In this document: positions 4,635 through 39,803 of the stretch, piece after piece
How positions within the stretch are numbered: position 1 is the first letter of the stretch
Layout of the letters: each line of letters begins with the position of its first letter
NCBI GenBank assembly: GCA_963726755.1
Contig: CAVSDB010000002.1
Span: 154,889 to 218,888, forward strand
DNA: 64,000 nucleotides
From: an uncultured Actinomycetota bacterium
GTDB taxonomy: Bacteria > Actinomycetota > Actinomycetes > JAHEKZ01
Reading direction: 5' to 3'
The notes under the pieces: generated by a model
The model's input: only the letters and a program-made list of their open reading frames with translations
Database searches by the model: none
Told to the model about the DNA's origin: nothing
Position numbers and translations under genes: made by a program

Positions 4635-4732
4635 AATCCTCCAACCAAAAGACCCCCCGCAAAGTGCGAGAGGTCGGCGCATCAGGCTGGCCTGATGCGC
4701 TAGCAGATAATGGTCGCGTACACCATGCGCAT
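4635..4732 (-). promoter_or_regulatory. Putative leader ORF plus hairpin/U-tract (attenuator-like) upstream of cimA
   Basis: On the minus strand: ATG CGC ATG GTG TAC GCG ACC ATT ATC TGC TAG ([10 protein letters not shown]). This is followed by a perfect hairpin GCGCATCAGG-CCAG-CCTGATGCGC (4677..4700), then GACC...GGUC and UUUUGGUUGG immediately before the cimA ATG. Confidence 0.3.
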
Positions 4733-4773
4733 AGTCTGACACATCGCAGCGAGAAGCAGCGTCGACTGGGAGG

Positions 4774-5596: not shown

Positions 5597-6523
5597 ATGA
5601 TCGCGCAGCCGTAACGTCACCGGACCTGGCTCTCCCTCACCGACGGTCCAACTGCGGTCCGCAGACTTCACGTGGCCAACGGGCGTGATTACAGCGGCCG
5701 TGCCGCACGCAAACACTTCACTGATGGTGCCGTCGAGATTGCCCTCACGCCATTGCTCGACGTTGATTCGCTCTTCGCTGGCAGGGATCCCAAGGTCTGC
5801 GGCGACGGTCAGCAACGAGTCGCGCGTGATTCCCGGCAGCAGCGCGCCGGTAAGCGTTGGAGTCACAACACGAGCGTCTGCACCGGTGCCGTAGACGAAG
5901 TAGAGGTTCATGCCGCCCATCTCTTCGACCCATCGGTGCTCAGCTGCGTCCAACCAGACGACCTGGTCGCATTCGTGCTCGGTCGCCTGCGCTTGCGCGA
6001 TGAGCGATGCCGCATAGTTCCCCGCGCACTTGGCTTCGCCGGTTCCGCCAGGTGCCGCCCGCACGTACTCGGTCGACAGCCAGACCGATACCGGTTTAAC
6101 ACCGCCGCGGAAGTACGCACCAGCTGGCGAAGCAATGAGCAGGAAGAGGTACGAACTGGCCGGTTTGACGCCAAGGCCGACCTCGGTGGAGAACATGAAC
6201 GGACGCAGGTACAGGCTCATCTCATCGCTGGTCGGGACCCACGTGCGGTCTTGCTGCACCAGCGCACCGATTGCGTCGACGAAGAGGTCCTCGGGTAGTT
6301 CGGGCATGGCCAATCGCGCTGCGGATTTCTGAAACCGTCGAGCGTTCAACGTTGGCCGAAACGTGGCGATGGAACCGTCGGCGCGGTGATAGGCCTTAAG
6401 CCCCTCGAAGATCTCCTGCCCGTAGTGAAGAGCCATCGTCGCTGGGTCGAGTTCCAGTGGGCCATACGGAACGAGTTCGGCGTCGTGCCAGCCGCGACCG
6501 TCGGTCCATTGGATCGTGACCAT
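5438..6523 (-). CDS. ilvE: Branched-chain amino acid aminotransferase
   Basis: Full-length similarity to actinobacterial IlvE (MALHYGQEIFEGLKAY..., GTAAVITPVGHVK). The C-terminal tail looks extended, so a frameshift may remove the native stop. Confidence 0.85.
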   Translation of the reverse strand: MVTIQWTDGRGWHDAELVPYGPLELDPATMALHYGQEIFEGLKAYHRADGSIATFRPTLNARRFQKSAARLAMPELPEDLFVDAIGALVQQDRTWVPTSDEMSLYLRPFMFSTEVGLGVKPASSYLFLLIASPAGAYFRGGVKPVSVWLSTEYVRAAPGGTGEAKCAGNYAASLIAQAQATEHECDQVVWLDAAEHRWVEEMGGMNLYFVYGTGADARVVTPTLTGALLPGITRDSLLTVAADLGIPASEERINVEQWREGNLDGTISEVFACGTAAVITPVGHVKSADRSWTVGEGEPGPVTLRLRDHLLDLQHGRIDDPHGWMHPLVPASLTHLTSPGSVQVSETARVASLLRCQVPLG

Positions 6524-6635
6524 GTGATCGGTGAAGAACCGGCCGAACCCGGGATCAGCGAGAATCGCCTCGCCGCTGCTCGTCAGGCAGCGGCTGGCTC
6601 GTGGGCTTCAGCGCGATCGTCATCGTCAGATCCTC

Positions 6636-7685
6636 TCAGCCAGCCGCGGCAGCGGCCAGCGCGTCCCCAATTTCAGCGGTATTGCGTTCGCTGGAACCCC
6701 GCTGGGCAAGGTCTTCGGTGACCGCGCGCTCCACGCTCCGAGCCGCCTCGGTCAGTGAAAGGTGATCGAGCAACATACCCACTGACAGCACCGTGGCGGT
6801 CGGGTCCGCGATGCCTTGCCCCGCGATGTCCGGGGCAGAACCGTGGACCGGCTCGAACATGCTGGGGTTGGTACGACTCACATCAAGGTTGCCACTTGCG
6901 GCACGTCCAATCCCTCCGGCGATGGCCGCGCCAATGTCAGTGATGATGTCGCCAAAGAGGTTGTCGGTGACTACGACGTCGAACCGCTCTGGTGCGGTGA
7001 CGAAGAACATGCTCGCCGCGTCGACGTGCAGATACTCGGTCTCGACCTCGGGAAACTCCGTCGCAACCGCATTAAACGTTCGGGTCCACAGATCACCAGA
7101 GTGAGTCAGGACGTTGTTCTTGTGTACCAATGACAACTTCTGACGTGGGCGAGCGTGTGCCCGGCCAAAGGCGTCACGCACTACTCGTTCCACACCGAAT
7201 GCGGTGTTGAGACTCTCCTCGGTGGCCACCTCATGGCGAGTTCCCCGACGCAACGTGCCACCCGAACCGGCGTACGGTCCCTCAGTTCCTTCTCGCACGA
7301 CAATCATGTCGATGTCCTGCGGCGTCTTGCCGGCCAACGGGGTAGCGACTCCCGGGTATAGCCGCACTGGGCGAAGGTTGACGTGATGGTCGAGCTCGAA
7401 CCGAAGTCGCAACAGCAAGCCACGCTCGAGCACGCCACTCGGCACGGACGGATCTCCGACTGCGCCAAGGAGGATCACATCGTGTGCGCGAATCTCCTCA
7501 AGAACCGAATCCGGCAACGTTTCACCGGTCGCATGCCAACGTCGAGCACCCAGGTCATACTCAGTCCGCTCGAACTTGACCGAATTCTGGGCAGCGACCG
7601 CCTCGAGGACCTTAAGACCTTCAGTCACCACCTCAGGGCCGATGCCGTCCCCTGCGATCACGGCCACGCGAATCGTCGTCGTCAT
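6636..7685 (-). CDS. leuB: 3-isopropylmalate dehydrogenase
   Basis: [19 protein letters not shown]... with IMDH-family motifs throughout; intact 349 aa. Confidence 0.9.
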
Positions 7686-7688
7686 GAG

Positions 7689-9285
7689 TCAGTCGAGTCC
7701 TTCGAGGTCGAGTGCACGTCCTTCGTGGGCACCAATAGCTTCGATGATTTCGTTCAAGGCATCGGCCTCGATGGGTGAGTCAACGGTCATAGCGATGAGC
7801 GCATGACCGCCTGCCATATCGCGGCTCACCTGCATACCAGCGATATTGACACCCTGTTCGCCAAGGACGCGTCCGAGTTCGCCAACCACACCTGGTCGGT
7901 CGTCGTAGCGGAAGAACGCCAGGTGTTCTGACGGTTGCAGGTCCACGTCGAAGCCATCGATCTCGACCAACTTCTCGACATGTTTTGGGCCGGTGAGCGT
8001 GCCGCTCACAGTCAAGTGGCGGCCATCAGCCAGGCCGCCACGAATCGTCACCAAGTTTCGGTGGTCAGGGCTATGTGACTCGGTGACTAGCCCGACTTGG
8101 ACGCCGCGCTCGGCGGCGAGCAGCGGGGCATTGACGTAGCTGACTTGCTCGTCGACAACCGCAGTGAACACACCCTTTAGAGCCGCCAACTCAAGGACCT
8201 TCACGTCCTCGCTTGAGATCTCGCCGCGCACTTCAACCGTCAATCCTTCGGGCGCCCCACCAGCCAGGCCGGTAAACACCCGACCCAACTTCTCGGCGAG
8301 TGGAATGAACGGGCGCACGTCCTCGGCGATAACGCCACCTTTAACGTTCACGGCGTCAGGTACCAATTCGCCCGCGAGCGCGAGACGGACTGACTTCGCG
8401 ACCGCGATGCCGGCTTTCTCCTGCGCCTCGTCGGTGCTGGCACCAAGGTGCGGCGTCACCACAATCTGTTCATGCTCGAACAGTGGCGACGACGTGCAAG
8501 GCTCCTCGCTGAAGACATCAACTCCGGCCGCTTGCACTCGACCTTCAGCAACTGCTGTTGCGAGGGCGGACTCGTCAACGATCCCACCGCGTGCCGCGTT
8601 CACGATGATGACTGTTGGCTTGACCAGCTTCAGTTGGTCAGCTGCCGATGAGTCCGACGGTCTCAGGGGTCTTTGGCAAGTGCACCGTGATGAAGTCGCT
8701 CTGAGCGAGCAGTTCATCGAGCTCCACGAGCTGGATTCCGAGCTGAGCCGCGCGACCCGGCTGCACATACGGGTCGTAAGCGATGACTTTGGTCCCGAAG
8801 GCCATCAGACGTTGTGCGGCGAGCACTCCGATTCGGCCAAGGCCGAGAACTCCGACGACCTTGCCGTAGACCTCGACGCCGGTGTACTTCGAACGCTTCC
8901 ACTCACCATTGCGCAGTGCCGCGTTAGCCGGTGCGATGTTTCTGGCCGCTGCCAGCAGCAATGCAACTGCTAGTTCCGCGGCGCTGACGATGTTCGACGT
9001 CGGAGCATTGACGACCATAACCCCGGCTTGCGTTGCCGCCGGGACGTCGACATTGTCGAGTCCGACCCCCGCGCGAGCAATCACCCTGAGTCGACGTGCC
9101 GCACCGAGCGCCGCCGAGTCGATCTGCGTGGCGCTGCGAACCAACACCGCATCGACGTCGACGATCGCGGCCAGCAACTCGTCTCGGTCAGCGCCATTGC
9201 ACGTTCGGATCTCGAAATCGGGGCCGAGGGCTTCAACTGTCGCAGGCGACAACTCTTCGGCTATTAGAACAATCGGTCGGCTCAC
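7689..9285 (-). CDS. serA: D-3-phosphoglycerate dehydrogenase, frameshift near 8640-8770
   Basis: The NAD-binding N-terminal half is in ORF 8638..9285. The catalytic C-terminal half plus ACT domain is in ORF 7689..8768. Position matches M. tuberculosis serA1 between leuB and ilvC. Confidence 0.8.
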
Positions 9286-18148: not shown

Positions 18149-19656
18149 GAGCCGGACGTGCGCTCAAGAATGAGTTCTCGGACCCGGGCTGCGTCCGCCT
18201 GACCTCGCGTGGCTTTCATGACAGCGCCGACGATGGCGCCGGCTGCTTGCGTCTTGCCGCTTCTGATCTTGTCGGCGACGTCGGGTGAGGCGGCCAAGCG
18301 CCTCGTCGATCGCAGCGAGTAGCGCTCCGTCGTCCGACACCACCTGCAAGCCACGTGCGGCAACGACCTCGTCTGGCGTGCCTTCGCCCTCGATGACGCC
18401 CTCGATCACCTGGCGGGCGAGTTTGTCGTTGAGTGCACCACTCGCGACGATCTCGACCACGCGTGCCACGTCCGCCGGTGTGATGGGTACCTCAGCAAGA
18501 TCGATCGACCGCTCGTTGGCAACACGAGCGATCTCGCCAGTCCACCACTTGCGGGCACTCGCCTGATCGGCACCGAGCTCAATGGTGCGTTCGACGAGTT
18601 CGACTCCCCCGGCGTTGACCAACGACTGCATGTCGTGGTCGCTGATTCCCCACTCGTCACGCAGTCGTTGGCGACGTTGCAGCGGTGGTTCTGGCAGCGT
18701 CGCGCGCAACTCGTCGACCCACTCGTCACTGGGCGCGACGGGAACCAGATCAGGTTCAGGGAAGTAGCGGTAGTCCTCCGACTCCTCCTTGATCCGTCCA
18801 GACGTGGTGCTGCCGTCGTTCTCGTGGAAGTGACGGGTCTCCTGAACGATCGAACCGCCCGATGCGAGACACCGCTGCCTGTCTGCGGATCTCGTGATTG
18901 ACTGCGCGCTCAACCGATCGCATCGAGTTGACGTTCTTCGTCTCGGTGCGCGTTCCGAGTTCGGACGAGCCCTTGGGCTTGAGTGAGAGGTTTGCGTCCA
19001 CTCGCATCGAGCCTTGGTGCATGTGAGCGTCTGAAACGCCCAGCGCGACGATCAGTTCACGCAGTTCATTCGCATACGCCCTTGCCACTGCGGGGGCGAT
19101 CTTCGGATCGACCTCGATCGTCTTGGTGACGATTTCGATCAACGGCACGCCCGCACGGTTGTAGTCGACCAACGAATAGTCGGCACCCTGGATACGTCCG
19201 GTGGCACCCACCGACGTGCGTCGACTTACCGGTGTCTTCCTCCATGTGCGCGCGTTCAATTTCGACGCGAACCGTCGTTGGCCCTTTCTCGGTATCAAGA
19301 GAAATGTCGAGATAGCCATCGAACGCGATCGGCTCGTCGTACTGCGAAGTCTGGAAGTCCTTGGGCATGTCTGGGTAGAAGTAGTTCTTGCGCGCGAACC
19401 TCGACCACGGCGCGATGGAGCAGTTCAGCGCCAGCCCGATCCGGATCGCGGACTCAACCGCCTTCGCGTTGACCACGGGCAGCGCACCTGGCAGACCAAG
19501 GCAAACCGGACAGACCTGAGTGTTCGGATCGGCACCGAACTCGGTGGGACAGCCGCAGAACATCTTCGACGCTGTGTTGAGTTCGACGTGGACCTCTAGC
19601 CCCATAACCGGGTCGAAGGTGTCGATGGCCGCATCGAAGTCCATGAGTTCGGTCAT
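18145..19656 (-). CDS. gatB: Asp-tRNA(Asn)/Glu-tRNA(Gln) amidotransferase subunit B, two frameshifts
   Basis: N-terminus [28 protein letters not shown] is in ORF 19066..19704. The middle is in 18756..19319 and the C-terminal GatB/YqeY domain in 18164..18913 and 18145..18363. Confidence 0.8.
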
Positions 19657-21159
19657 CGGGCTGCCTCCAACTGCGGAGCTTTCGACAGCAATGGAGCGCC
19701 CCAACGTTCGAGCAGCGCCTGTTCTAGCGCGGCGGCGGCGCGGTACACCAGGTCGTCGCGCTGGACGGCGGCCATGATCTGCACGCCGACCGGTAGATCG
19801 TCATCGCCGAGACCGCCGGGCAGGCTCATGGCCGGGCCGCCGTACAGGGACGACGGCAAGCGTGGCCAGATCCGCCTTGTACATCGCGACCGGATCGTCA
19901 ACGCGGGCGCCGAGTTTGAACGCGACCGTGGGCGTGGTCGGCGACATCAGAACGTCAACGGTCGAGTAGGCGGCCTCGAAGTCGCGACGGATCAGCGTCC
20001 GGACCTTCTGCGCTTGGCCGTAGTAGGCGTCGTAGTAGCCGGCCGAGAGCGCATACGTACCGAGCATGATCCGTCGCTTAACCTCGGCGCCGAAGCCCGC
20101 TGCCCGGGTCATGGCCATCACCTGCTCGACGCTGTGTTCGCCGTCGTCGCCGGTGCGCAAGCCGTACCGCATACCGTCGAAGCGGGCCAAGTTGCTGGAG
20201 CACTCGCTCGGCGCGATCAGGTAGTACGCGGGTAGCGCGTAGTCGAAGGCCGGGCACGAGACCTCGTGGACCTGCGCGCCGAGTTCCTCGACGAGCGCGA
20301 CTGCTTCGTCGAAGCGTGCCTGCACGCCCGGTTCGTAACCTTCGCCTTGCAGTTCCTTGACGACACCGATGCGGAGTCCGGCCAGTCCCCCGTGCTCGCC
20401 GCGAGCAGCAGCAACGACGGCTGGTACCGGCGCGTCGATGGACGTCGCGTCCATCGGGTCCTTGCCCGCGATGACCTCGTGCAGCAACGCGGCGTCCAGA
20501 ACCGTCCGAGCAAACGGTCCAGCCTGGTCGAGTGACGACGAGAAAGCGACCAAGCCGTAGCGCGAGACGCCGCCGTACGTCGGCTTCATCCCGACGATTC
20601 CGGTCACCGACGCCGGTTGCCGGATCGAGCCTCCGGTGTCGGTGCCGATGCCGAGCGGCGCTTCGAACCCCGCCACCGCGGCGCTTGAGCCACCCGACGA
20701 CCCGCCGGGGATCCGCTCGAGGTCCCAGGGGTTCGACGTCGGACCGTACGCGGAGTTCTCGGTCGAAGAGCCCATGGCGAACTCGTCCATGTTGGTCTTG
20801 CCGAGAATGATCACCCCGGCGTCGCGGAGTCGCTTGGTGACGGTCGCGTCGTACGGGGGTCGCCAGCCTTCGAGGATCCGCGAGCCGCACGTAGTAGGGA
20901 TGCCCTTGGTAGCGATCACGTCCTTGAGCGCCAGCGGGACTCCCGCGAGTGGGCCGCGCTGGTCGTTGCCGAGGGCGTCGACGGCACGTGCCGCGTCCAG
21001 CGCCCCTTCGGAGTCGACGTGCAGAAAGGCGTGGAGCCGTCCGTCGACCTGGTCGATCCGGTCCAGATGTGCCTGCGTCACCTCGACCGCCGAGGTCTGT
21101 CCGTCCTTGACGGCGGTCGCGAGCTCGTCCGCTGTCAGCTGCGTGAGGTCAGTCGACAC
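19653..21159 (-). CDS. gatA: Glutamyl-tRNA(Gln) amidotransferase subunit A, C-terminal frameshift near 19850
   Basis: Amidase signature [13 protein letters not shown] is in ORF 19801..21159. The C-terminal tail is in ORF 19653..19901. Confidence 0.85.
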
Positions 21160-21712: not shown

Positions 21713-23920
21713 CTAGCCGGCTTCGCCGCCTCTTAGGAGGCGGAGGGCTCGCTGTTGCGATGGGTGGCGCAGCAACCAGGTGGTTGCGGACTCACCGTCG
21801 AGCGGGCGACTGACGTACCAACCCTGGATCGCATCGCAGCCGAGTTCGTCGAGCAAGTCCCAGACCTGCTGGGTCTCGACACCTTCGGCGACTGCGCTCA
21901 TGCCCAGACCGTGGGCCAGATCGATGATCGACCGGACGATGGTCACGTCCTCGGAGTCGAGGGTGAGCCGAGAAACGAAGCTGCGGTCGATCTTCAGTTC
22001 AGTGATCGGCATCCGCTTCAGCAGCACCATGGACGAGTACCCGGTGCCGAAGTCGTCGAGGGAACTGGTGACACCGAGTTCACGCAGCGCGCCAAGGGTC
22101 CCCGCGACCTCGTCGGAGTCTCTGGTCAGCACGCGTTCGGTGAGTTCGAGGATGAGCATCGAGGCCGGCACGTCGTGCTTCTCCAGTGCGTCGCTGACCA
22201 CCTTCAGCAGGTCGCCGCTGTGAAGGTCGCGCATCGACACGTTGACGGCGACCGGAACGTGCAAGCCCGCTTGCCGCCAGCGAGCGACCTGCTCGAGCGA
22301 GCGGTCGATCACGTACGCGGTAAGCGGCCCCATCAGCCCCGAGTGCTCGGCCATGGGAATGAAGTCGTCGGGCATCACCAGGCCACGCAGAGGGTGGTGC
22401 CAGCGGACCAGCGCCTCGACGCCGACGACGGCGCCACTCCCGACGGACACCTTGGGCTGGAAGTGGACCTTGAGTTCCTCGTTTTCGAGCCCGTTGCGCA
22501 GACCACCAAGCAACGCGAGTCGCCCAGCGGAGTTCTTGTCGCGGTCAGCGGCGTAAACCTCGACGCCGGTGCGCTCTTCCTTGGCCAGGTACATGGCGAC
22601 GTCGGCTCGTCGGACTATGGGCTCGACGTCTTGGCCGTGCTCGGGGAACACAGCGACGCCAACGCTTGCCTCAAGTTCGAAGAGCATGCCCTCAAGGTGG
22701 AATGGCCTGGTCAGCGCCTCGCGTACCCGCTGCGCGACCTCAACCGCCGCGTCGCAGTCACGGACGGGGTCGAGCAGGACGGCGAACTCGTCACCACCCA
22801 GTCGCGCGACGACGTCTCGGGGACGGAGCGCGCCCTTGATGCGCTGAGCGACCACAGCCAGCAGTCGGTCGCCGACATGGTGGCCGAGCGTGTCGTTGAC
22901 CTCTTTGAACCGGTCAAGGTCGAGCAGGCAGAACCCGACGCTGGTGCCGTTTCGGCGGGCATCCTCGATGGAGTCACCGAGCCGACTCAGCACCATCTTG
23001 CGGTTCGGCAGCCCGGTCAGTGAGTCATGCAGCGACTGGTGCTCCTTCTCACGCGAGATGGACGCCGTTAGGTACACCGCGTAGAGCGGTAGCAGCAGCA
23101 GCGGCAGGTAGACCGGTTCGGCAGCGACGAAGACGACCAGCGGGGACAGCGCGAGCACGGCGAACGTAGTCACGAAGAAGTAGCCAAGCTCGTTGAAAAA
23201 CTCTTCGTGGAACTTGTGACCGTCGCTGGCGGCCAACGTGCACACGAGAGCGTTGTTCACCATGAAGAAGGCAAACCAACCCGAGACGACCCAGATCAAG
23301 TCGCTCGCGACCAAGCCGACCGCGGGGTCGGCAAGCGTGGGCATGCTGACGCCGTCGTAGGCATACCAACCGGCCATGATCGCGGCGGCCGAACCCGCGC
23401 TGATCGTGTACTGACCCACGTTGAACGGAACTTTCCAGGGAGCCTTGCGTCGGGCGATTTCAGCGATGAGGGTTGCGATCGCGAGGAACATCAGCGCTGG
23501 CCACGGGCCGTAGAGGTACATCGCGGCGAACACGAATGCGTGGCTGGTTACGACACCCTGCGGGTCATACCCACCGGCAGCAACGACAGGGCGCAACTCG
23601 CCGAGGAGAATGAGCCCGGCAACCATCCAGAAGGCGGCTGGCGCTTGTGACATCTGCGGGACGGTCTGAACCGCAGCCCAAACAGCCAAAGACACACCGA
23701 CGATGACCGAGAACCACCAACCGACCGCGAACAACGACCACTCGGCGAGCGACGGACGACCTGAGTCCTCGTCTTCGGGCAGCCACGATTCATCGGGTGT
23801 TGCGACACCACCGGGCGCGGTGGTTCCACCGGGCGTTTCGGTCATCACCCACCCTTGCCTTCGTCGACCCGTCTTGAGGCTTTTCGGTCGTGGGCCTGCC
23901 CCAACAGGTCCGGACGTCAC
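21713..23920 (-). CDS. Membrane-anchored GGDEF-EAL protein (diguanylate cyclase/phosphodiesterase)
   Basis: Multi-TM N-terminal region. The GGDEF domain has RLGGDEFAVLL. The EAL domain has ELKIDRSFV and an EGVETQ-type motif. The start could instead be MTETPGG at 23845. Confidence 0.85.
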   Translation of the reverse strand: MTSGPVGAGPRPKSLKTGRRRQGWVMTETPGGTTAPGGVATPDESWLPEDEDSGRPSLAEWSLFAVGWWFSVIVGVSLAVWAAVQTVPQMSQAPAAFWMVAGLILLGELRPVVAAGGYDPQGVVTSHAFVFAAMYLYGPWPALMFLAIATLIAEIARRKAPWKVPFNVGQYTISAGSAAAIMAGWYAYDGVSMPTLADPAVGLVASDLIWVVSGWFAFFMVNNALVCTLAASDGHKFHEEFFNELGYFFVTTFAVLALSPLVVFVAAEPVYLPLLLLPLYAVYLTASISREKEHQSLHDSLTGLPNRKMVLSRLGDSIEDARRNGTSVGFCLLDLDRFKEVNDTLGHHVGDRLLAVVAQRIKGALRPRDVVARLGGDEFAVLLDPVRDCDAAVEVAQRVREALTRPFHLEGMLFELEASVGVAVFPEHGQDVEPIVRRADVAMYLAKEERTGVEVYAADRDKNSAGRLALLGGLRNGLENEELKVHFQPKVSVGSGAVVGVEALVRWHHPLRGLVMPDDFIPMAEHSGLMGPLTAYVIDRSLEQVARWRQAGLHVPVAVNVSMRDLHSGDLLKVVSDALEKHDVPASMLILELTERVLTRDSDEVAGTLGALRELGVTSSLDDFGTGYSSMVLLKRMPITELKIDRSFVSRLTLDSEDVTIVRSIIDLAHGLGMSAVAEGVETQQVWDLLDELGCDAIQGWYVSRPLDGESATTWLLRHPSQQRALRLLRGGEAG

Positions 23921-24000: not shown

Positions 24001-26219
<2,219 letters not shown>

Positions 26220-26230
<11 letters not shown>

Positions 26231-27262
26231 CTCTGTCGCGCAGCCGTCGACCTGCGTCCACCACTGCACGGTACGCGGGAGGTACGTCAGTTTGCGAGAC
26301 AGCGCTGAGGCCACACCCCGGCGTGAGAACGACTTGATCCAGGCGCTTGACTTCCAGCCCGGTGCGGTCCCACAGACCTACCACCGGAGCTATGAATTGC
26401 TCGCCCGCAGGCTGTTCGCTAGGCGTCGGAGGATCGGTCGGACCCGGCAGCAACCACCCGCCAGCCTCCACCCACTCTGCCAACTCCACCTCAAGCGGTC
26501 TCGACGTCGAGAACCCGCATGTCCAGACCCAAACCAGCCGCTCCGATTCTCCGAATCAAGCCCACGGGTACCTCGTCTGAACAGCAGTGCACGACCGTTG
26601 CCGTCACATGTTCGTTGGCCGTTGTGACCAGGGCACTCAATACGCGCTCAACTTCCTCAGTTGAGACAGGTGCAACCCGACCCCAACCACTTGCAGTTCC
26701 CATGGCGCCGGACAACACCGACGGCAACAGCGGTTCGTCGAGCTGCAACAGAATGCTCATCGCGGGTAGTCGCCTGGCGATGTCCGACACCCAAGTCGCG
26801 ATCCCCTCGGTCAAACTCTCGGCCAAGTCGCGACGGGCGCCTTCGTCAGCCAGCGGCTCGGTGACCACGGTTCGTCTCGACCGAAGCTGCAAAGGTCAGC
26901 GGGCCGACCACTTGCACCTTGAACCAGCCTGAGTAGCCGCTGAACACCTCTTCGACGACGTCAACGTCCTGAGCCAACAGCGAGCGAGCACGTCGAACGT
27001 CAGCGCCTGGTCGCGTACCCAACCGCCAACCGCGAACATCGAGTTCGGTCGGCACATCCACCAGGAGCGCCGCGCCGCGTCCGACGCTCGTCGCAGCTGG
27101 ACCGCGATCCGGCAGTTCCGCTAGGTAGGGCAGATCGGTCAGCAGATCGGCAATGGACCTGGTCGCTTCCATCGGATCTGACCCGGGCAGCGCCCCGGTC
27201 CCAGTCACCGAGCCGGCTGGCCATCGTTTCGCCGCCGGGGCGTCGGGGTCGATCGAGGTCAC
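26220..27262 (-). CDS. Cobalamin-independent methionine synthase (MetE C-terminal-like) family protein, two frameshifts; Rv3015c-like
   Basis: Three consecutive minus-strand ORFs (26846..27262, 26491..26892, 26220..26489) sit in the position of M. tuberculosis Rv3015c between ligA and mnmA. Confidence 0.55.
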
Positions 27263-31313: not shown

Positions 31314-31386
31314 GACGGCTCGCGCCGACCTCCTGTTCTTTGCCCCACTTGCCAAACCCGAGTTGTCAAGAGCATCCGGCCCGCAC

Positions 31387-31431
31387 CCGGTGACGTCACC
31401 GGAAGTCTGCCAGACGGATTGGATCCAATCC
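31387..31431. promoter_or_regulatory. Three abutting palindromes upstream of etfBA: CCGGTGACGTCACCGG, GTCTG-C-CAGAC, GGATTGGATCCAATCC
   Basis: Perfect 16-bp palindrome at 31387..31402, an 11-bp palindrome at 31405..31415 and a perfect 16-bp palindrome at 31416..31431. A fourth TATCA-AA-TGATA lies at 31450..31463. All lie 75-140 nt upstream of the etfB start. Confidence 0.7.
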
Positions 31432-31511
31432 TTAGCCGGGTCATTTTGCCTATCAAATGATAGCCAGTCGCGATTCTCCTGGCGAATGGGCTCCAACCAA
31501 GGGACGAGAGG

Positions 31512-34500
31512 TCACCTGCGTTTGAGGTATAGCGGTTCGGCGATGACTCCGTGGCGTGCGCGGATGCTGTCTCGCTCCGGTACCAGACTCATGAGGCTCC
31601 CACTGCCTGGGACCAACTCTTCAAGCGCATCGATGCACCTCGCCACTTCGATATCCGCGCGGCTGCGTCGCGCGCGGTCCAGTGTCGACTCAATATCCGA
31701 GACCGCCTCAGAGTGTCCGAGCTGCGCCATCGCCAAGCCGGCGAGCCGTGCCGCAGTTACAGCAACCACTTGGTCCGGCGCGAGCGCAGCGAGCGAAGGA
31801 CTGATCTGCCGGTAGAGGTCAAGAGCCGACTCGCTGTTCCAGGCGAGCACGAGAGCCTCGAGTTGATACACCTGGATGTCGAGCAAGGTGCGGGGGTCCA
31901 ATGACCCCCTCGCCTGGTCGACCACATCGGCAATCTCCTGGGCCGCCTTGGCCGCCTCCACCGTCCCTGACTCTCTCGCTCGCCCTCGCAGTAAGGATGC
32001 CTGAGCCAAGTGCGACAACGGCCCGCCTGCGGCCCGGAGCACGCGTTCGCAGTTCACGTTCATCTCTGCCGCCATCTGCAGGTGCCCCTGTTCAAGCACA
32101 ATGCCCGCTCGGTTGAGGCGGGTGATGGCTTCCCCGACGACGGTCCCACTGCGGCTGAACGCCTCCTCCGCCTCAGCGAAGCTTGCCAGGGCTGCCGGCC
32201 AATCGCCGCGAAACATCTGATCGGTTCCGAGGTCTAAGAGCGAGGCTCCGAGCAACTCGCCGGCATCCTCGACCCGAAGAATCTCAATCGCCTCCTTGAC
32301 GGCGATTTCGGCATCCCGGCGATGCGCCAAGGTTCGCGACAGGTATGCCTGCAGAAGGGCTTCGGCCAGGAGCACCGGACTGTCCAAGACGCGAGCTTGG
32401 CTAAGGGCATGCTCGGCGTCGGCGCTGCTCTCCTGGGATTTCTCTTGGAAGCATCGGGCCGAGGCACGCTCGATCAACAGTCGCGTCCGTACCTCCAAGG
32501 ATGTGCGTCCCGAGACGCCATCCAGCAGATGGAGACCTTGGTTTGCCCATCGGACGGCCAACGAGTACTGGCCACGCCGACCTTCGACCTGACTACGCAA
32601 AGCAAGGACACGCGCTTGTTCTACCGCGCTCCTCCCCTGCAGCGCCCTCCCGAACGATCGCGAGGCGTCGGCCTGGTCTCCCGCCATGGCCTGCGCTGCT
32701 GCTAGCCGTTCCCAGGTCCGTGCTTGGTAACGCGAAGAGCGACCAGCGCGGGCGCTTGAGACAACGGAGAATCTCGCGCACTCGACGGCCTCTTGTGCCG
32801 CCCCAAGTCTCAACGCCGCCTCGTAGGCGCGGTCTAGCCAAGGTAGGGCTGCGCCATCACGCCGGCCCATCGCCAGGTGTCGACCTACCAGCGCCGCGGA
32901 AATCGACTGGCGGTCCTCGGCATTGCCGGCGGCTTTTGACAACGCGCGCCCGGCCCGAGCATGAATTCGGAGTCGCTCAGCGTGCGGCAAGCCTTCGTAG
33001 GCCACCAGCCGGACCAGATCGTGGCGAAAGGTGAGGCCGTCTCCATTGACGACGACGAACTCGGCAAGTGCGTCCCACCCACCCCGCAACTGAGACAGAT
33101 CACGATCAACTGACTGCGCAATGAGTGCGTGAGAGGGCTCAGCCCCCAGCACGGAAACCTGCCGCAACAATCGCCGGTCGGCTGGCGCGAGCCGATCGAT
33201 CCGGGCGCCGATCGTGCGTTCAGCCGAAACCGGCAGCGAGTCACTGCTCGCACCGCCAGCCACATAGGTGGCTAGCTGAGCTGCGAAGAGTGGGCTGCCA
33301 GCAGCACGGCGAACAATGGCGGAGACATCGGCGTCGCTCAGGGCTCGCTCGCCGGCCGCGTTCACCGCGATCTGCTCCAACACCGCGTCACTCAACGGCT
33401 CCAAATGCACCTCTTCGGAGTCCTCCCACAGACGGGGTGAGTCGGGGCGCCTGGTGGCGACCATCAACCAACCTGATTCCAGGAGCACCCGCTGCAAATG
33501 CTGCAAGAGGCCGCGTGAGGCTGCGTCGAGCCAGTGCGCATCCTCGATCACGATCATTCCGGGAGGTGCCGCTTGCTCGCGGATCAGATCGCCGACCGCG
33601 TATGCCGTGAGGTCGCCCACTCGCGAGGGATCAATCGCCGCGACCTCGGGCGTGCTCGAGGTCGGTACTCCGAGTACCGCTGCGATCAGCGGCAACACCG
33701 CGGAAAGTTCAGCCGGAACAACACTCTGCAGCGTGGACTCCGAGGATAGGTCGGGCAGGTTAGGTGAGCGCGTCTCAACGAGGTTGCGTAGCGGACGCTG
33801 AACAGCACGGTAGGGCAGCGTCGTTCCATAAACGTCTCCGAAGATCGTGGCAGTCGGCTCTCCTGCCCCCCTTAAGAAGGCGGTCAGGAGCTGGGTCTTA
33901 CCACTCCCTGGCGCTCCCACGATTTCCACACTTGCCCCGCGCCCCGCACGGTGGTTGGCCAGCGCCTCATTCAACGTAGCCAGTTCGGCTTCACGACCGA
34001 CAAAGAAGGCATCCGCACGCAGTACCGGCGCCTCCACCGGATCCCCCACGCTGATCGCCAGGACCGGAACTCGCTTACCCTTCAGGGCCAACATCAGGCT
34101 GCCGGCCACCGCGTATCGACCACGAGACCGAGCCATCACCGCCTCGCTGGCAAGAACCTGCCCTAGGGACGCGGCAGCTGCCAGACGTGCGGCCGTATTG
34201 ATGGTGTCACCCAAGGTGGCATAGGTCCGGCGGAGCGGGTGTCCGACGTCTGCGGTGAAGGCCGTTCCGCTGTGGACTCCCACGGCTAGACGTCCGGTGG
34301 GGTCCCGCTCCACCATGCGTCGGACAGCTGCCAACATCAGTAACTCATCGTCATCGGATTGCACCGGCACTCCGGTGAACAGGAGGATCTTCGCGCCATG
34401 GCGACTGACGTCCGTCTCGTAGACCGATACGCCCATCTCGTCCTCGACCGAAGCGACGGTCGCCATCGCCTTGAGCAGTGTCGCTGCGCGGTCCTGGAGT

Positions 34501-35297
34501 GAACGTCCGACCAGTCGAATGTCACCAAAGGCTGCGACAACACGACGATGCTCTGGAGGGGCGTGGCCACTGCGAAGAAGCGAACGCAGCCCCTCTGGGA
34601 CAAATGCCGAGTTGCCCGAGGGTGGTTCAGTTGGATTCCACGACAGCTCCGCCTCCGACATCGAAGCGACTCGAGAACGGGTGAGCCGAACCGCACCGGT
34701 GGGCAATTTCGCCAGGGTCTCACCAGCCACGGCCGTGGCCTCAAGTGCAAGTGCGGAATCGACGCCCGGACCGATCAGGAACCAGTGACGTCGAAACCCT
34801 TCCGTAACGACGAGCAAGGCTCGCCCGGAAGCAACCCCCACTGACATCCGAAGACGGACCGCTCCTCCGTCGGTTTCGACTCTCCCCACCTCTGCGACGG
34901 CTTGCTGCATCCTCACAGCGGTCACGCTGGCGCGCTGAACATGGTGCGTCCCACGAAACACGATGAAGAGGGCGTCGCCACCGAAGAACAGCACGTCGCC
35001 ACCGTGCTGAAGAACGACGTCAATCAGAGACGTGAAGCACCGATTGATCGCATCGGAGATCTGCTCCGCGCCGATCCGACCGTGTCCTGCGAGCCTCTCG
35101 GAAAGTTTGGTGAACCCAGAGATGTCTGCCGACACGAACGTCCCCGCGACAGCCAGCGTCGTCTCCCCCGCGGTTACCTCGGCCAGGATTCGGGGCGTAT
35201 AGGCAGCAACCGGATCCTTCAGCGGAACTTGCCGCCCCCCGGCGCCGTTGCCGATGGCGAAAGTTCCCAGACCCCAGCGTCCTGGAACAGACCCCAA
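31512..35297 (-). CDS. Tandem class III nucleotidyl cyclase (two CHD domains) fused to a STAND/AAA ATPase and TPR array; no LuxR HTH
   Basis: CHD1 (FVSADISGFT...GGDALFIVF) supplies the metal-binding Asp residues. CHD2 (TLGDTINTAARL) supplies the N/R transition-state residues. A Walker A (VGAPGSGKTQLL) follows, and then about 600 aa of TPR-like helical repeats. The ORF is uninterrupted (1261 aa). Confidence 0.8.
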   Translation of the reverse strand: MGSVPGRWGLGTFAIGNGAGGRQVPLKDPVAAYTPRILAEVTAGETTLAVAGTFVSADISGFTKLSERLAGHGRIGAEQISDAINRCFTSLIDVVLQHGGDVLFFGGDALFIVFRGTHHVQRASVTAVRMQQAVAEVGRVETDGGAVRLRMSVGVASGRALLVVTEGFRRHWFLIGPGVDSALALEATAVAGETLAKLPTGAVRLTRSRVASMSEAELSWNPTEPPSGNSAFVPEGLRSLLRSGHAPPEHRRVVAAFGDIRLVGRSLQDRAATLLKAMATVASVEDEMGVSVYETDVSRHGAKILLFTGVPVQSDDDELLMLAAVRRMVERDPTGRLAVGVHSGTAFTADVGHPLRRTYATLGDTINTAARLAAAASLGQVLASEAVMARSRGRYAVAGSLMLALKGKRVPVLAISVGDPVEAPVLRADAFFVGREAELATLNEALANHRAGRGASVEIVGAPGSGKTQLLTAFLRGAGEPTATIFGDVYGTTLPYRAVQRPLRNLVETRSPNLPDLSSESTLQSVVPAELSAVLPLIAAVLGVPTSSTPEVAAIDPSRVGDLTAYAVGDLIREQAAPPGMIVIEDAHWLDAASRGLLQHLQRVLLESGWLMVATRRPDSPRLWEDSEEVHLEPLSDAVLEQIAVNAAGERALSDADVSAIVRRAAGSPLFAAQLATYVAGGASSDSLPVSAERTIGARIDRLAPADRRLLRQVSVLGAEPSHALIAQSVDRDLSQLRGGWDALAEFVVVNGDGLTFRHDLVRLVAYEGLPHAERLRIHARAGRALSKAAGNAEDRQSISAALVGRHLAMGRRDGAALPWLDRAYEAALRLGAAQEAVECARFSVVSSARAGRSSRYQARTWERLAAAQAMAGDQADASRSFGRALQGRSAVEQARVLALRSQVEGRRGQYSLAVRWANQGLHLLDGVSGRTSLEVRTRLLIERASARCFQEKSQESSADAEHALSQARVLDSPVLLAEALLQAYLSRTLAHRRDAEIAVKEAIEILRVEDAGELLGASLLDLGTDQMFRGDWPAALASFAEAEEAFSRSGTVVGEAITRLNRAGIVLEQGHLQMAAEMNVNCERVLRAAGGPLSHLAQASLLRGRARESGTVEAAKAAQEIADVVDQARGSLDPRTLLDIQVYQLEALVLAWNSESALDLYRQISPSLAALAPDQVVAVTAARLAGLAMAQLGHSEAVSDIESTLDRARRSRADIEVARCIDALEELVPGSGSLMSLVPERDSIRARHGVIAEPLYLKRR

Positions 35298-36268
35298 CTG
35301 AACACCGCCGGTGCCGAAGCACCTTCAGGAGCCCAGAAGGCATCACGCGAAACGACCGTTACCGGACCCGATGCTGTCTGGAACTCGCAGGTGGCATACG
35401 CGTCCAGGATCGGCGCGACACCAGTCCGGTCGTCTGCTGTCGGCCACCTAAGGATGCGCTCCTGGTCGTACGACCGCGCGTAAATGGCCGAATCAAACGT
35501 GTCAATCCGAACCACGTTGGTCAGTGGGTCAAGCAAACCTGGGAAACCGTTCGCATCCTCTCCTCGGTAGCCCCACAGCAGCTGCGACGGCCCGGGCGTG
35601 CCGCCGGCGCTGCAAGCGGTTTGGGTTTGCCCGATCATCGGCAGATGAGCCTCAATGGGGCGCCCGGTGTCGTCAGTGGCGGTGACCACCGGATCTCCTG
35701 GACCGCCAGAGGCGTACTGAGCGACGGCAAACCGGTGGGGTACCCACGCATCGCAACCCGAATTCTTGGCGGTAATCGTTAGCCGCCAAGAGTCAGGGCT
35801 GTTCATCAGGTCGGGCTCACCGATGCGAGGGACCTCGAGGACCCAACGGACACGACCACCGTCTGGGAAGCGGATGGCAAACCTGTTCGGGTGGTTGCCC
35901 GGTTGGAATTGGGTGACGACCGGTGGGTTCGATACTGCCGCGAAGGGTTGTTGCGGCCCCGGCGAGACCTCGATCCGGTTGATCGGCGGCCTGTTGGAGA
36001 AGGCGTCGACCCCGTTGTAGCCAAACACCGCCTCTTTGGTGGTGTGGTTGATCCGGCGCACGCAGGTGACTCTTGGTAGCACCGATGGTCCGGTCTCAGG
36101 ACTAAGCCCAGCCAGTGGCTCGATGACTAACTTGAAGGCATTGGTGGTCGTCGTGGACCCTTTGGGGGTGCTCGTGGCGGCACTGACTGTGCCGGTCATG
36201 GATCCGGCGACCAGGGCCCAAGCCGTGAGGGCAGCGAGTGCGGTCCCGAACGCAAAACGCCTGTGCAT
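35219..36268 (-). CDS. Secreted protein of unknown function (signal peptide), immediately upstream of and overlapping the cyclase-STAND gene
   Basis: Start MHRRFAFGTALAALTAWALVAGSMTGTVSAA (Sec signal). Mature about 320 aa with no recognisable motif. The 3' end overlaps the downstream ORF by about 78 nt. Confidence 0.5.
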   Translation of the reverse strand: MHRRFAFGTALAALTAWALVAGSMTGTVSAATSTPKGSTTTTNAFKLVIEPLAGLSPETGPSVLPRVTCVRRINHTTKEAVFGYNGVDAFSNRPPINRIEVSPGPQQPFAAVSNPPVVTQFQPGNHPNRFAIRFPDGGRVRWVLEVPRIGEPDLMNSPDSWRLTITAKNSGCDAWVPHRFAVAQYASGGPGDPVVTATDDTGRPIEAHLPMIGQTQTACSAGGTPGPSQLLWGYRGEDANGFPGLLDPLTNVVRIDTFDSAIYARSYDQERILRWPTADDRTGVAPILDAYATCEFQTASGPVTVVSRDAFWAPEGASAPAVFSWGLFQDAGVWELSPSATAPGGGKFR

Positions 36269-36394
36269 GATTGGCTCACCTTCGCCACGGGCGTCCCTGG
36301 GCGAACCGCCCTGTATAACGGCCTCTCTACACCATTCGCGCTCCCTTTGGGGCCACTTTCCGTACTCGGCCAAGACCCATGCCACCAGGATTCG

Positions 36395-37963
36395 ATGACC
36401 GCCGGTAACTACCTAGATGTCAGCCAGATACATAGGCTGCCTGCCATGACTCCACTGCCAACGACCGAACGCCTCGGCGCGGTTCTTGATCTGATGATTC
36501 CCAGCGCGCGTGAGGAAGCCGGCCACCACAAGTACGACGGGGTGCTCCAGGACTTGTCCAACAGTGCGGTCAAGTCAGGGTTGGACCGACTTGGTGGAGC
36601 CACCCTCGATGACTCACACGACGAGGCACACTTGGCTGCGTTTGAGGCCGGTCTTGTCGTGCTGTTCAGAGATTTGGAAGCGCACCGCACCAACCCACTC
36701 CTCCACCTCAGCAACCTCGACGTCTCCTGCTACCTCAAGGAGTACGCACCGGAAGCTGAACGTCATGAGGCGATGCGCAAACACATCGCTGGCTGGCCGG
36801 ACGCGATCGACGTCGCAATCTCGACGCTCGACCAAGTCGCTGCGCCGGTTGCAACTGCACTCCTGGACGCGATCAAGGGCTTGGGGGCATCGCTGCCGCC
36901 AGACTGGCCGGAGTCCGGACCAGCCAAGGCAGCCCATGCCCGACTGGTCGCACACATCGAGACCTGCGCAAAGACTGGACGTCCTGATGCGGCGATCGGT
37001 GAGAAGGCACTCGCCAAATTCATGGGCACGATCGACGCCAGCACGGTTGATCTCGGCCTACTTGAAGCGAAAGCAGACGCTGAGGGCCTACGACTCCAAC
37101 AAATGCTGGACGAGGCTTGTCAGGCTTTGCGCCCCGGAGCGAGCACCGCGACAACCGTCGCTGAGTTGATTCACGACTCGCCAGCGGCGGACGAACTCGT
37201 CCCGATTGCCCAGGCTCGTACCGCTGAGGTCATCGAGTTCACGCGCAATCAGGATCTGGTCCCTTACATCGACGGCGAGTGCCGCGTTGGGATCGCCCCA
37301 GAGGCTCGGCGCTGGGGCATCGCGATGTTGAGCTGGTCCGCCCCCGGCGAGCCGGACTCGCCATCGCTCTACGACATCACGCCCCCTGACGAGTCGTGGT
37401 CACCCGAGGAGCAGAGCGAGTGGCTGTCGATGTTCAACCCGACGTCAATGCTGGTCATTACCGCACACGAAGTTGCACCCGGACACTTTGCCCACGGACG
37501 TGCACTGCGGCGCGCACCCGGAGCGGTTCGGCAGAGCCTGTTCGGCTACGCCTTCGCCGAAGGGTGGGCGCACTACACAGAGGAACTGATGCTTGAGGTC
37601 GGGTTTCGTTCCGAAGACAAGCGCTTCCAAGTCGGCGTCGCCCTTGAGGCACTTGTGCGACTGACGCGATTGGCGTGCGCAATCGGAATCCATCGCGGGT
37701 CGATGACCGTGGACGAAGCCACCGCTCGGTTCGAGGAGAAGGCGTACGCCGCTCCGCCCATCGCCCGTTCTGAAGCGCGAAGAGGCACCTTCGACCCCGG
37801 CTATGGCATGTACACGTGGGGTAAGTGGCAGATTCTCCAAGCGCGTGAGGAAGCCAAGGCTGCGTGGGGGAATGAGTACACACTTCGTCGGTTCCACAAC
37901 GCGCTGCTCGATCTGGGCTCACCGCCACTTGGACTGATCGGCACGGCGATCGAACGCGGTTAG
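36395..37963 (+). CDS. DUF885-family protein (putative metallopeptidase-like)
   Basis: HEVAPGHFAH motif and overall DUF885-like architecture. Start taken at MTAGNY; the listed ORF begins at 36263. Confidence 0.55.
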   Translation: MTAGNYLDVSQIHRLPAMTPLPTTERLGAVLDLMIPSAREEAGHHKYDGVLQDLSNSAVKSGLDRLGGATLDDSHDEAHLAAFEAGLVVLFRDLEAHRTNPLLHLSNLDVSCYLKEYAPEAERHEAMRKHIAGWPDAIDVAISTLDQVAAPVATALLDAIKGLGASLPPDWPESGPAKAAHARLVAHIETCAKTGRPDAAIGEKALAKFMGTIDASTVDLGLLEAKADAEGLRLQQMLDEACQALRPGASTATTVAELIHDSPAADELVPIAQARTAEVIEFTRNQDLVPYIDGECRVGIAPEARRWGIAMLSWSAPGEPDSPSLYDITPPDESWSPEEQSEWLSMFNPTSMLVITAHEVAPGHFAHGRALRRAPGAVRQSLFGYAFAEGWAHYTEELMLEVGFRSEDKRFQVGVALEALVRLTRLACAIGIHRGSMTVDEATARFEEKAYAAPPIARSEARRGTFDPGYGMYTWGKWQILQAREEAKAAWGNEYTLRRFHNALLDLGSPPLGLIGTAIERG

Positions 37964-38778
37964 ATCTGCGGCCAGATCTTGTTGGCACCTGGAATGCAAC
38001 CCTGGTGACGTCCCAGTCGGTGCAGTCCTTCCGAGTCACCTTGTTTGTAGGTGCTTTGGTGGCGACTAAGGATCGTTGGGTACATCAGTTCGCTCGTGCT
38101 ACCGACGTGGCTGAGGCCAATGGCGTGACCAATCTCGTGCTGCAGCAATGAGCCTCGAGTAACGCCTGAGCCGAAGCCGGGTGCGTAGATGTGATTGTCC
38201 GCCGAGTTGATGACGACGTAGCCCCTGCCCACCGCTGCCTGCCAGTGCGACTTCTCGTCGGTCCACCCTCGCAGGATCCAGCCGCCGACGCCAGAGACAT
38301 AACCGTCTCCCGAGGTCGCGAGCAAATCGGTGTGGTACTTCTTCCGGCTCTCGTCCACCCAAGCCACGACAATCTCGGCGACCTTCTGACGCTCCGACCA
38401 TCGGGCGGTCGGGGTATTGCGAGGCAACTCATGGGTACGACCAGCAAACTTAAAGGTCAGACCACTTCGCTGTCCTGCTCGAGCGAAGGATCCACGAACG
38501 TCACGAACGGCCCGTGCCCTCGCGTGAGCACTGTGGCCAGCTAGCCGTGGGTTAACCGCGAATGTGATGGTCTGGCAGGGGTTCCATCGAACGAGGTGGT
38601 GACCGCCGTCAGGGTCGGTCCAGGTATTGACATTGAACGGGTCGCCGGACGCGTCTGCAGAAAACTGCGACAACGTCGCTGGTGCAACCAACCCGACGGT
38701 GACGGCCAAAACAGTGGCCATCAAACCCACGAGTCGTCGACGACTCCCACCCATGCCATTCCTCCTCGAAGCCTGCAC
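37960..38778 (-). CDS. Secreted zinc metalloprotease (metzincin, matrixin/M10-like)
   Basis: Signal peptide, HEIGHAIGLSH zinc-binding motif and a downstream Met-turn (ELMYP). Confidence 0.6.
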   Translation of the reverse strand: MQASRRNGMGGSRRRLVGLMATVLAVTVGLVAPATLSQFSADASGDPFNVNTWTDPDGGHHLVRWNPCQTITFAVNPRLAGHSAHARARAVRDVRGSFARAGQRSGLTFKFAGRTHELPRNTPTARWSERQKVAEIVVAWVDESRKKYHTDLLATSGDGYVSGVGGWILRGWTDEKSHWQAAVGRGYVVINSADNHIYAPGFGSGVTRGSLLQHEIGHAIGLSHVGSTSELMYPTILSRHQSTYKQGDSEGLHRLGRHQGCIPGANKIWPQI

Positions 38779-38811: not shown

Positions 38812-39803
38812 CTACTCCATGCGAGGGAGGGGGTTGGGCCAACCGGGTGACGCTAGGAATCCTGAGTAGCCGAGGTTGCTCAGAACAGACGCGTTGGCCA
38901 GCCGACGTCTGGCATCGAGGACCGACGGGTCTTCGTTGCCCACGAGGTCGAGCAAACCGAGCAGATGGTCCGTCGCTTGCTTACGTTCGTCGCCGGAGAG
39001 CCGGCTGACCAACGCGATGAGACGATCGAAGGCGCGGTCTACCGCACCGCCGAGGAGCTCAAGGTCGGCAGCCAGCAACTGCGGTTCCACCGAATCGGGA
39101 GAAGCGGCGGCCAGTTTCAGCGTTTGCTCCACGTCCACGCCCTTGGTGCGACGCATCAGGTCAACCCGCGCCAACCCCTGAGTCGCCTCGATGTCGCCGG
39201 GTCGGGTCGCCAACACCTGCTGGTAGGCACTGGCTGCCCCGTCAAGATCGTCCGCAGCGAAGGCGGCGTCGGCTGCATCCAGTTCTGGGTCGATGGGCTC
39301 CTCACCGGGCTGCTCCTCGACGGTCGCGTCCGGCACGGTCCAGCCAGCGCAATCACTTGGTCAAGGAAGTCGCGAACTGACGCCTCCGGGAGCGCCCCTG
39401 AGAATCCTGGGATCACCTGACCCTGCCAGACGACCATCACGGTCGGCACGCTTTGCACCTGCGCCGCCGCGGCTAACTGCGGGTTGGCGTCAACGTCGAT
39501 TGCCGCCAGCACCCAACGGCCGGCATCAGCCCCGACGAATCGCTCAAGAATGGGAGTGAGTTGCTTGCATGGCTCGCACCACGTCGCCCAGAAGTCGAGG
39601 ACGACCGGGACGGTGGCCGATCGCTGGACGACCTCTATTTCGAAATTGAGATCGGTGACCTCGATGACGGCGGGCGGTTCGACTGCGCCGCCGCCCGGCG
39701 ATGACGCCGCTGCCTCGGCTCGTTCTTGGGCTTCGCGCTGCTTCGCCAGCGCTGCCAGGTCAACGGCCCCATAGGGATTGAAGCCACCCGGCTGCTGCGT
39801 CAT
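38812..39803 (-). CDS. Thioredoxin-domain protein with TPR-like C-terminal domain (YbbN/CnoX-like), frameshift near 39330
   Basis: WATWCEPCK thioredoxin motif is in ORF 39156..39803. The helical C-terminal domain is in ORF 38812..39336. Confidence 0.65.

Follow-up and report, generated by a model that had tools for sequence, protein, structure and literature searches.

A gene for an exported protein accompanies one branch of the bacterial relatives of soluble adenylyl cyclase

We analyzed a stretch of 64,000 nucleotides (nt) of DNA, called the window in the following, from an uncultured Actinomycetota bacterium (GenBank assembly GCA_963726755.1, contig CAVSDB010000002.1). Two adjacent genes on its reverse strand are the subject of this study. 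One encodes a large protein with two class III cyclase homology domains (CHDs) in one chain, followed by a STAND-type P-loop NTPase and a long tetratricopeptide repeat (TPR) region; it resembles the soluble adenylyl cyclase (sAC) of animals. The other, immediately upstream and in the same orientation, encodes a protein with a signal for export, here called the partner. This pair of genes is conserved in one branch of a large family of bacterial cyclases. The features of the pair are listed below, with positions in the window and with residues counted in amino acids (aa).

31512..35297, (-) strand: cyclase gene, TTG start, 1261 aa; tandem-CHD/STAND/TPR protein, bacterial sAC-like
34683..35159, (-) strand: CHD1, C1-like, aa 47-205, with the metal-binding residues D58 and D108
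34038..34553, (-) strand: CHD2, C2-like, aa 249-420, with K303, A360, N367 and R371, and with D259 and F307 at the metal positions
33486..34004, (-) strand: STAND-type P-loop NTPase (AAA_16), aa 432-604
31515..32960, (-) strand: C-terminal helical TPR-type sensor region, about aa 780-1261, without a helix-turn-helix (HTH)
35219..36268, (-) strand: partner gene, ATG start, 349 aa; exported all-beta protein of a rare unannotated family
36179..36268, (-) strand: signal peptide of the partner, about aa 1-30, MHRRFAFGTALAALTAWALVAGSMTGTVSA with the cleavage site before the following A; no lipobox
35219..35245, (-) strand: C-terminal motif of the partner, APGGGKFR plus stop codon; in the family PGGxR[FIL]R-COOH, strictly terminal
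35219..35297, (-) strand: overlap between the 3' end of the partner gene and the 5' end of the cyclase gene, 79 nt with the TTG at 35297 taken as start

The Pfam search of the cyclase recovered Guanylate_cyc in two stretches (E 5e-13), AAA_16 at aa 432-604 (E 9e-18) and a weak match to TPR_12 at aa 1019-1079. The whole TPR-type region aligns end to end with homologues that bear many TPR matches in Pfam. Both nucleotide-binding motifs of the NTPase are intact, with Walker A as GAPGSGKT at residues 461-468 and Walker B as VIEDAHWLD at residues 583-591 (hhhhED at 583-586). The protein thus has the features of a STAND protein, namely an AAA_16 P-loop that has both Walker motifs and is placed between an effector and a repeat sensor, and this layout is conserved in the family. 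No GerE/LuxR domain was detected in Pfam at E<=0.1, and the C-terminus aligns with those of homologues that also have no HTH. A preliminary description of the locus had predicted a 1261-aa tandem-cyclase/STAND/TPR protein without a LuxR domain, and the coordinates of the open reading frame (ORF) and the Pfam results agree with it.

The catalytic residues are distributed between the two CHDs. According to the alignment with human sAC, D58 and D108 of CHD1 correspond to the metal-binding residues D47 and D99, and both are invariant in the family alignment. CHD1 has D180 and A184 at the Asn and Arg positions and is therefore without the transition-state pair. This pair is located in CHD2, where N367 and R371 correspond to N412 and R416 of human sAC; the segment TLGDTINTAARL spans residues 361-372. 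A motif alignment places K303 of CHD2 at the canonical position of the substrate lysine. The metal positions of CHD2 are occupied by D259, which is R or H in relatives, and by F307. Because of the Phe at the second position CHD2 has no Asp pair, and the two domains are complementary. The same division, with the metal-binding aspartates in CHD1 and the substrate and transition-state residues in CHD2, had been anticipated in the preliminary description; a retained Asp pair in CHD2, the finding that would have spoken against it, is absent.

The similarity to sAC extends to the fold. Among solved structures the best sequence match of the cyclase is human sAC (ADCY10; E 3e-15). An AlphaFold2 (AF2) model of aa 1-430, which was calculated from an alignment of 34 sequences, had a pLDDT of 88 and a pTM of 0.87. 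The top 24 matches of this model in the PDB are all human sAC, with E values down to 1.6e-27 and TM-scores of 0.72-0.78; they span both cyclase domains and rank ahead of the C1-C2 pairs of membrane adenylyl cyclases. The superposition of the modeled N-terminus on C1-C2 of human sAC fits the pseudo-heterodimeric core that had been proposed from the sequence. No transmembrane segment was predicted in the cyclase. Its sole hydrophobic stretch (aa 523-545) is a conserved STAND helix that belongs to the NTPase module, which indicates that the protein is cytoplasmic. A match in NCBIfam to the TOMM kinase/cyclase fusion (TIGR03903) scored 117 bits against a cut-off of 705.75 and covered aa 333-842. 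The score is far below the cut-off, the match is confined to CHD2 and the NTPase, and the protein has no kinase domain; this identity was rejected.

In human sAC, too, two class III domains in one chain form a pseudo-heterodimer, in which C1 carries the metal-binding Asp pair and C2 the Asn and Arg. The P-loop of human sAC is located at residues 516-523 and putative TPR-like motifs follow further on (PMC3475452). The bacterial protein resembles full-length sAC in having a P-loop soon after C2 and then TPRs; for the C-terminal halves this likeness is at the level of reported motifs. The two proteins differ in several respects. The catalytic cores are only 18-19% identical, Arg176 and Thr405 of human sAC are replaced by Leu183 and Ala360, and the window protein has 1261 aa compared with about 1610 in sAC. 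Furthermore, the window protein comes from a bacterium and is accompanied by a dedicated gene for an exported partner, of which we know no counterpart in the case of sAC. Bacterial enzymes of the sAC type as such are not new; a description from Chloroflexus is among the works cited in PMC11006738.

A protein search with the cyclase resulted in 744 proteins at E<=1e-20. Among the 120 matches listed, nearly all have about 1200-1320 aa and the combination of Guanylate_cyc, AAA_16 and TPR; none has a LuxR domain, and those with a name bear the label class 3 adenylate cyclase/TPR repeat protein. When a single genome was scanned for each species, relatives were present in at least 560 genomes, mostly metagenome-assembled genomes (MAGs) of Acidimicrobiia and other Actinomycetota, with some Chloroflexota. 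The homologues align end to end, and their catalytic residues are invariant or nearly so. Taken alone, the cyclase is ordinary: it belongs to a very large and already annotated sAC-like family of soil Actinomycetota. It shares domains and catalytic residues with the proteins of Actinomycetota and Chloroflexota annotated as adenylate/guanylate cyclase domain-containing or tetratricopeptide repeat protein (about 1250-1300 aa), but it is only 30-38% identical to any member of the family and falls into a separate sub-clade, the only one with the upstream partner gene. This sub-clade also comprises P0003, P0004, P0006-P0008, P0010, P0011, P0016, P0018 and the cyclase of locus L087.

The preliminary description had regarded a LuxR domain as the usual ending of such proteins and had named a mycobacterial group as relatives. 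Neither view held. The Rv0386, Rv1358 and Rv2488c proteins of M. tuberculosis consist of a single N-terminal cyclase, a MalT-type ATPase, TPRs and a LuxR HTH (bioRxiv 10.1101/2024.03.06.583649). They share with the window protein an N-terminal class III cyclase, a MalT/AAA_16-type P-loop ATPase and TPRs. However, with one CHD they must homodimerize, and they end in a LuxR HTH, while the window protein has two complementary CHDs and no HTH. They represent a different, single-CHD family and are not its nearest relatives; these are the sAC-like proteins.

The partner gave no match in Pfam, NCBIfam, the sequences of the PDB, PADLOC or PHROGs. A search of the PDB sequences with a profile of the partner family was also negative, and Pfam found no domain in any of 25 family members. 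A word-indexed search with the partner resulted in one homologue only, so that an exhaustive HMMER search was needed; it retrieved 29 relatives at E<=1e-3 among 1.84 billion representatives, nearly all of them with 320-380 aa. A repeated search with a profile added five more. The public annotation of the window partner is a 388-aa version with a GTG start at 36385.

The N-terminus of the partner has the parts of a signal peptide: a charged, basic n-region, a hydrophobic core and an AxA-type site. The other N-termini listed for the family are built in this way too; a few of them are truncated or mis-started. Anchors of the sortase, GlyGly-CTERM and lipoprotein types were ruled out, as the protein lacks an LPXTG, a lipobox and a transmembrane segment at its C-terminus. 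The n-region includes a twin arginine (MHRRFAF). Since this is present in only about half of the N-termini of the family, a Tat signal was ruled out as a family trait. The protein had been described as Sec-secreted and without a recognizable motif. The signal peptide and the lack of any domain match are in agreement with this, but the twin arginine means that the Sec route is not established.

Four Cys are conserved across the partner family (C69, C172, C219 and C294), together with the motifs VFGY and QFxPGxHPxxFAVR. The AF2 model of the partner (pLDDT 81, pTM 0.79) contains strands only, arranged in consecutive sandwiches; confidence is low (pLDDT <50) at residues 1-29 and 344-348. The structure prediction that the preliminary description had suggested for this protein thus yielded an all-beta model. 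A Foldseek search with it produced no convincing match in the PDB or BFVD, only FN3/Ig-like noise with TM-scores below 0.2.

Next we consider the distribution of the pair. All fetched loci and the window were translated in six frames and screened with a hidden Markov model (HMM) built from the partner family. Its matches were confined to ORFs that lie immediately before a cyclase gene in the same orientation. The paired loci are listed below, with handles of proteins in brackets.

window
L001
L008
L082 (P0003)
L084 (P0016)
L085/L086 (P0011)
L087
L088/L089 (P0018)
L090 (P0004)
L091

With L091 included, this makes 10 independent loci, and the cyclases that are linked to a partner form one clade. 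The HMM matched none of 79 loci with cyclases of the main clade (0/79), i.e. none of these is paired. There is also no widely shared alternative upstream partner in the main clade, where the best cluster of upstream genes covers 8/80 loci. The expectation that the secreted ORF would be conserved beside homologous cyclases is therefore borne out across these loci, but for one sub-clade only. The contigs of P0006 and P0010 end 245-470 nt upstream of the cyclase and have only short same-strand partial genes there.

The association also holds in the reverse direction. Starting from homologues of the partner (P0144, P0153 and L091), a cyclase was found immediately downstream each time. A metagenome scan with an alignment of four partner sequences resulted in three loci, one of them with downstream context (L091); the same scan with a single partner protein gave no match. 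In locus L008 (4897-6010; Acidimicrobiia MAG MFD02360.bin.1.92) the partner homologue is split over two frames, which is probably a long-read indel error.

An adjacent position could simply be inherited, with the two genes remaining neighbors by synteny and without any functional link. The absence of the partner from the main clade and the location of the two proteins in different compartments are in line with this idea. However, the pair has been kept although the partners have diverged to about 24-36% identity with that of the window (83% in L001) and although the flanking genes differ in nearly every paired locus. The two genes are always co-oriented and, at the extremes, are separated by 42 nt or overlap by 82 nt; searches that begin with the partner lead back to the cyclase. 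The divergence of the partner in changing neighborhoods in particular makes synteny without function an unlikely explanation.

Locus L001, a Logan contig with 81% DNA identity to the window, is the only close relative and allowed us to examine selection on the two genes. Over the full length, the ratio of nonsynonymous to synonymous substitutions (dN/dS) against L001 is 0.21 for the cyclase and also 0.21 for the partner. The two alternative frames of the partner ORF have values of dN/dS >1. Purifying selection of this strength on each of them indicates that both ORFs are genuine genes.

The start of the cyclase gene deserves some attention. Downstream of the TTG at 35297, the next ATG, GTG or TTG in the frame is the GTG of codon 55 (V55). 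V55 falls downstream of an N-terminal motif that is conserved in the family (AAYTPRIL in the window, PYLPRL in the family consensus); in the sequence alignment with human sAC the corresponding stretch precedes beta-1. The TTG is hence the only canonical start ahead of this motif, and the 79-nt overlap depends on it. L001 has GTG in the position of the TTG, and its codon in the position of V55, GTC, is no start. The public annotation of the cyclase (P0002, 1207 aa; the stretch in question is window 35135-35297 (-)) starts at V55 and loses the conserved motif. As this start lies directly before the metal-binding Asp, P0002 is almost certainly truncated. The overlap, put at about 78 nt in the preliminary description, amounts to 79 nt, given the TTG start.

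Late start calls also occur in relatives: P0006 and P0010 begin at the strand with the metal-binding Asp, and in L001 an internal ATG was taken as the start of the cyclase. Such calls probably arise because the true start of the cyclase is inside the upstream gene. Within the overlap, dN/dS against L001 is 0.48 in the partner frame and 2.1 in the cyclase frame, and residues 1-20 of the cyclase are disordered in the AF2 model. Together, the selection on the partner frame and the disordered cyclase start indicate that the overlapped codons encode a non-conserved leader of the cyclase. In both genomes the stop codon of the partner is part of a CTGA, in which a CTG in the cyclase frame overlaps the TGA (window 35219-35222; L001 1545-1548). 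This CTG, just ahead of the conserved motif, may be a non-canonical site of re-initiation.

On the basis of these results we lean toward the view that the two genes form a conserved operon, in which an exported protein is produced together with a cytoplasmic sAC-type cyclase that makes cyclic AMP (cAMP) under the control of its STAND/TPR region. The product of gene 1 would have a cleavable signal peptide and mature beta-sandwich domains, with the four conserved Cys probably forming two disulfides. The signal peptide and the beta-sandwich/Cys build suggest an extracytoplasmic function, most likely that of a binding or structural protein associated with the envelope. Since gene 2 starts inside, or a few bases from, the end of gene 1, the two would share one mRNA and their translation would probably be coupled. 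Gene 2 is presumed to encode a cytoplasmic bacterial counterpart of full-length animal sAC. Its two CHDs are predicted to fold onto each other in one chain and to create a single active site, to which CHD1 would contribute the two Mg-binding aspartates and CHD2 the purine-selecting lysine as well as the Asn and Arg that stabilize the transition state; the expected product of this site is cAMP. The STAND P-loop and the TPR array may serve as a nucleotide-dependent switch that decides when the cyclase is active. This switch would presumably be set by a ligand on the TPR sensor, as in MalT or the Avs proteins, and the exported protein could have its part in a process that is controlled or reported by cAMP. 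MalT and Avs have the same order of an effector, a P-loop nucleotide-binding oligomerization domain and a TPR-type sensor, which suggests a ligand-gated, nucleotide-dependent switch. Unlike theirs, the effector of the window protein is a complete intramolecular cyclase pair, so that oligomerization is not needed to build the active site.

Several observations weigh against this view. One of the two proteins is exported while the other is cytoplasmic, and a direct mechanism is not obvious. Locus L083 (P0007) belongs to the sub-clade and yet has no partner in the 560 nt available upstream. The TTG start, and with it the overlap, is a prediction, and the public annotation uses V55 instead. In the cyclase itself A360 replaces the residue that helps to select ATP, which is Thr in the sAC type (Thr405 of sAC, and Thr in the family consensus) and Asp in the canonical type; of the class IIIb signature in C2, a Lys plus a Thr for substrate selection, K303 is present. 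Arg176 of the bicarbonate site of sAC aligns to L183, and the family has V or L at this position. With A360 and L183, neither activity nor regulation as in sAC is assured. Finally, four relatives in the sub-clade (P0004, P0007, P0008 and P0010; loci L090, L083 and L008) have lost the catalytic Asn and the preceding Asp; they have GLTTITAARL in place of GDTxNTAARL and, judged by this motif, may be inactive. A loss of catalysis may thus be tolerated in this sub-clade, and at least two of the four have retained the partner gene.

The same substitutions could mean that the cyclase domains are mainly a scaffold or pseudo-enzyme and that the protein signals by contacts of its STAND/TPR region, with cAMP not being the relevant output. 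The Ala at the substrate-selecting position, the loss of Asn367 and Asp364 in the four relatives and the lack of a protein for binding cyclic nucleotide monophosphates (cNMPs) among the neighbors examined all fit this idea. On the other hand, the window protein retains every core catalytic residue (D58, D108, K303, N367 and R371); throughout the family these are invariant or nearly so, and the gene is under purifying selection (dN/dS 0.21). For the window protein we consider it unlikely that the cyclase domains are mainly a scaffold or pseudo-enzyme.

A more specific form of the relationship would be that the exported beta-sandwich protein is the cognate ligand or regulator of the bacterial sAC orthologue. 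The TPR sensor would bind the partner before its export, by way of the PGGxR[FIL]R tail or the signal peptide, and a build-up of precursor, due to export stress or controlled release, would flip the STAND switch and alter the output of cAMP. TPR domains are known to bind terminal peptides (the EEVD of Hsp70/90, PTS1), and in the STAND proteins of the Avs type whole proteins are bound by the TPR sensors; we count both in favor of such a mechanism. The strict pairing within one sub-clade fits as well, and so does the conservation of the C-terminal motif at the protein level, as it is retained both with and without overlap by the cyclase start. The points on the other side are the low model confidence of the tail (pLDDT <50 at residues 344-348) and the possibility that, where the gap is short, the PGG codons have a partial role in ribosome binding for the cyclase gene. 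In addition, the partner P0144 of locus L087 has no such tail and is still paired. All in all, direct sensing of the partner by the cyclase appears doubtful. If true, it would couple protein export or the status of the envelope to cAMP, and it would for the first time define an input to the STAND-TPR half of a cyclase of the sAC type, a half with an unexplained role in animals. In L087 (partner at 3031-3990, 319 aa) the missing PGGxRxR may reflect either a frameshifted C-terminus or a real variant; the adjacent cyclase (4033-8250) is the longest, with 1405 aa.

A combination of a cyclase, a STAND module and a neighboring gene also calls anti-phage defense to mind. In this case the upstream protein would be the effector of a cyclase of the Pycsar kind or of a STAND sensor resembling Avs; the cyclase shows weak PADLOC matches to PycC cyclases (best E 6e-11), and STAND plus TPR is the layout of Avs. 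These PycC matches, however, reflect generic class III cyclase homology. A Pycsar system has an adjacent effector with a cNMP-binding domain, but the exported partner, which has no match in Pfam, PADLOC or PHROGs, bears no signature of cNMP binding, of TIR or of pore formation. Moreover, K303 indicates a purine substrate and the locus is surrounded by a block of housekeeping genes (ligA, mnmA, iscS and etfAB). A function in defense is thus very improbable.

The operon of an exported protein and an sAC-type cyclase remains the reading we favor. What is new here is a rare, unannotated family of exported proteins that is tied gene-to-gene to one branch of the cyclases. What a STAND sensor responds to is usually found by way of its conserved partners. 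What the long P-loop/TPR tail of sAC does is an old question, and a bacterial pair amenable to expression and assay would bring it within reach. There is also a practical aspect, in that gene callers, including the public annotation, place the start of the cyclase too far downstream.

The surroundings of the pair contain two further features of the window.

31314..31511, (-) strand: spacer to etfB, about 198 nt, with one promoter-like site at 31457-31485 that is a consensus match only
18164-19704, 24001-26314 and 38812-39803, (-) strand: frameshifted housekeeping genes

The spacer before etfB probably marks the end of the two-gene unit. A scan of the region for promoters and terminators was uninformative in this GC-rich DNA. 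The GC content is uniform over the region, and no rRNA, tRNA or Rfam match was found in the window. Several other genes of the window are split by frameshifts (gatB into three ORFs, ligA into two and a thioredoxin-TPR_20 protein into two); the cyclase and partner genes are intact, as the preliminary description had remarked for the cyclase. The frameshifts are either indel errors of the assembly or real pseudogenes.

On one flank the pair is followed by etfB-etfA-iscS-mnmA-ligA. On the other flank (window 36263-38778) there is a DUF885 gene in divergent orientation to the partner gene; beyond it lies a gene for a secreted, M10/matrixin-like metalloprotease with a signal peptide and the motif HEIGHAIGLSH. 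Neither of these two neighbors is conserved beside the pair in other loci. The P0011 locus L085 (386-967 and 8368-10857) contains two genes with FHA domains, one with a PASTA domain and a second, unrelated cyclase with Big_2. Perhaps by coincidence, a GGDEF-EAL protein of cyclic di-GMP signaling is encoded in the window at 21713-23920 (-), about 8 kb from the cyclase, and a MASE1-GGDEF-EAL gene flanks the cyclase of L084.

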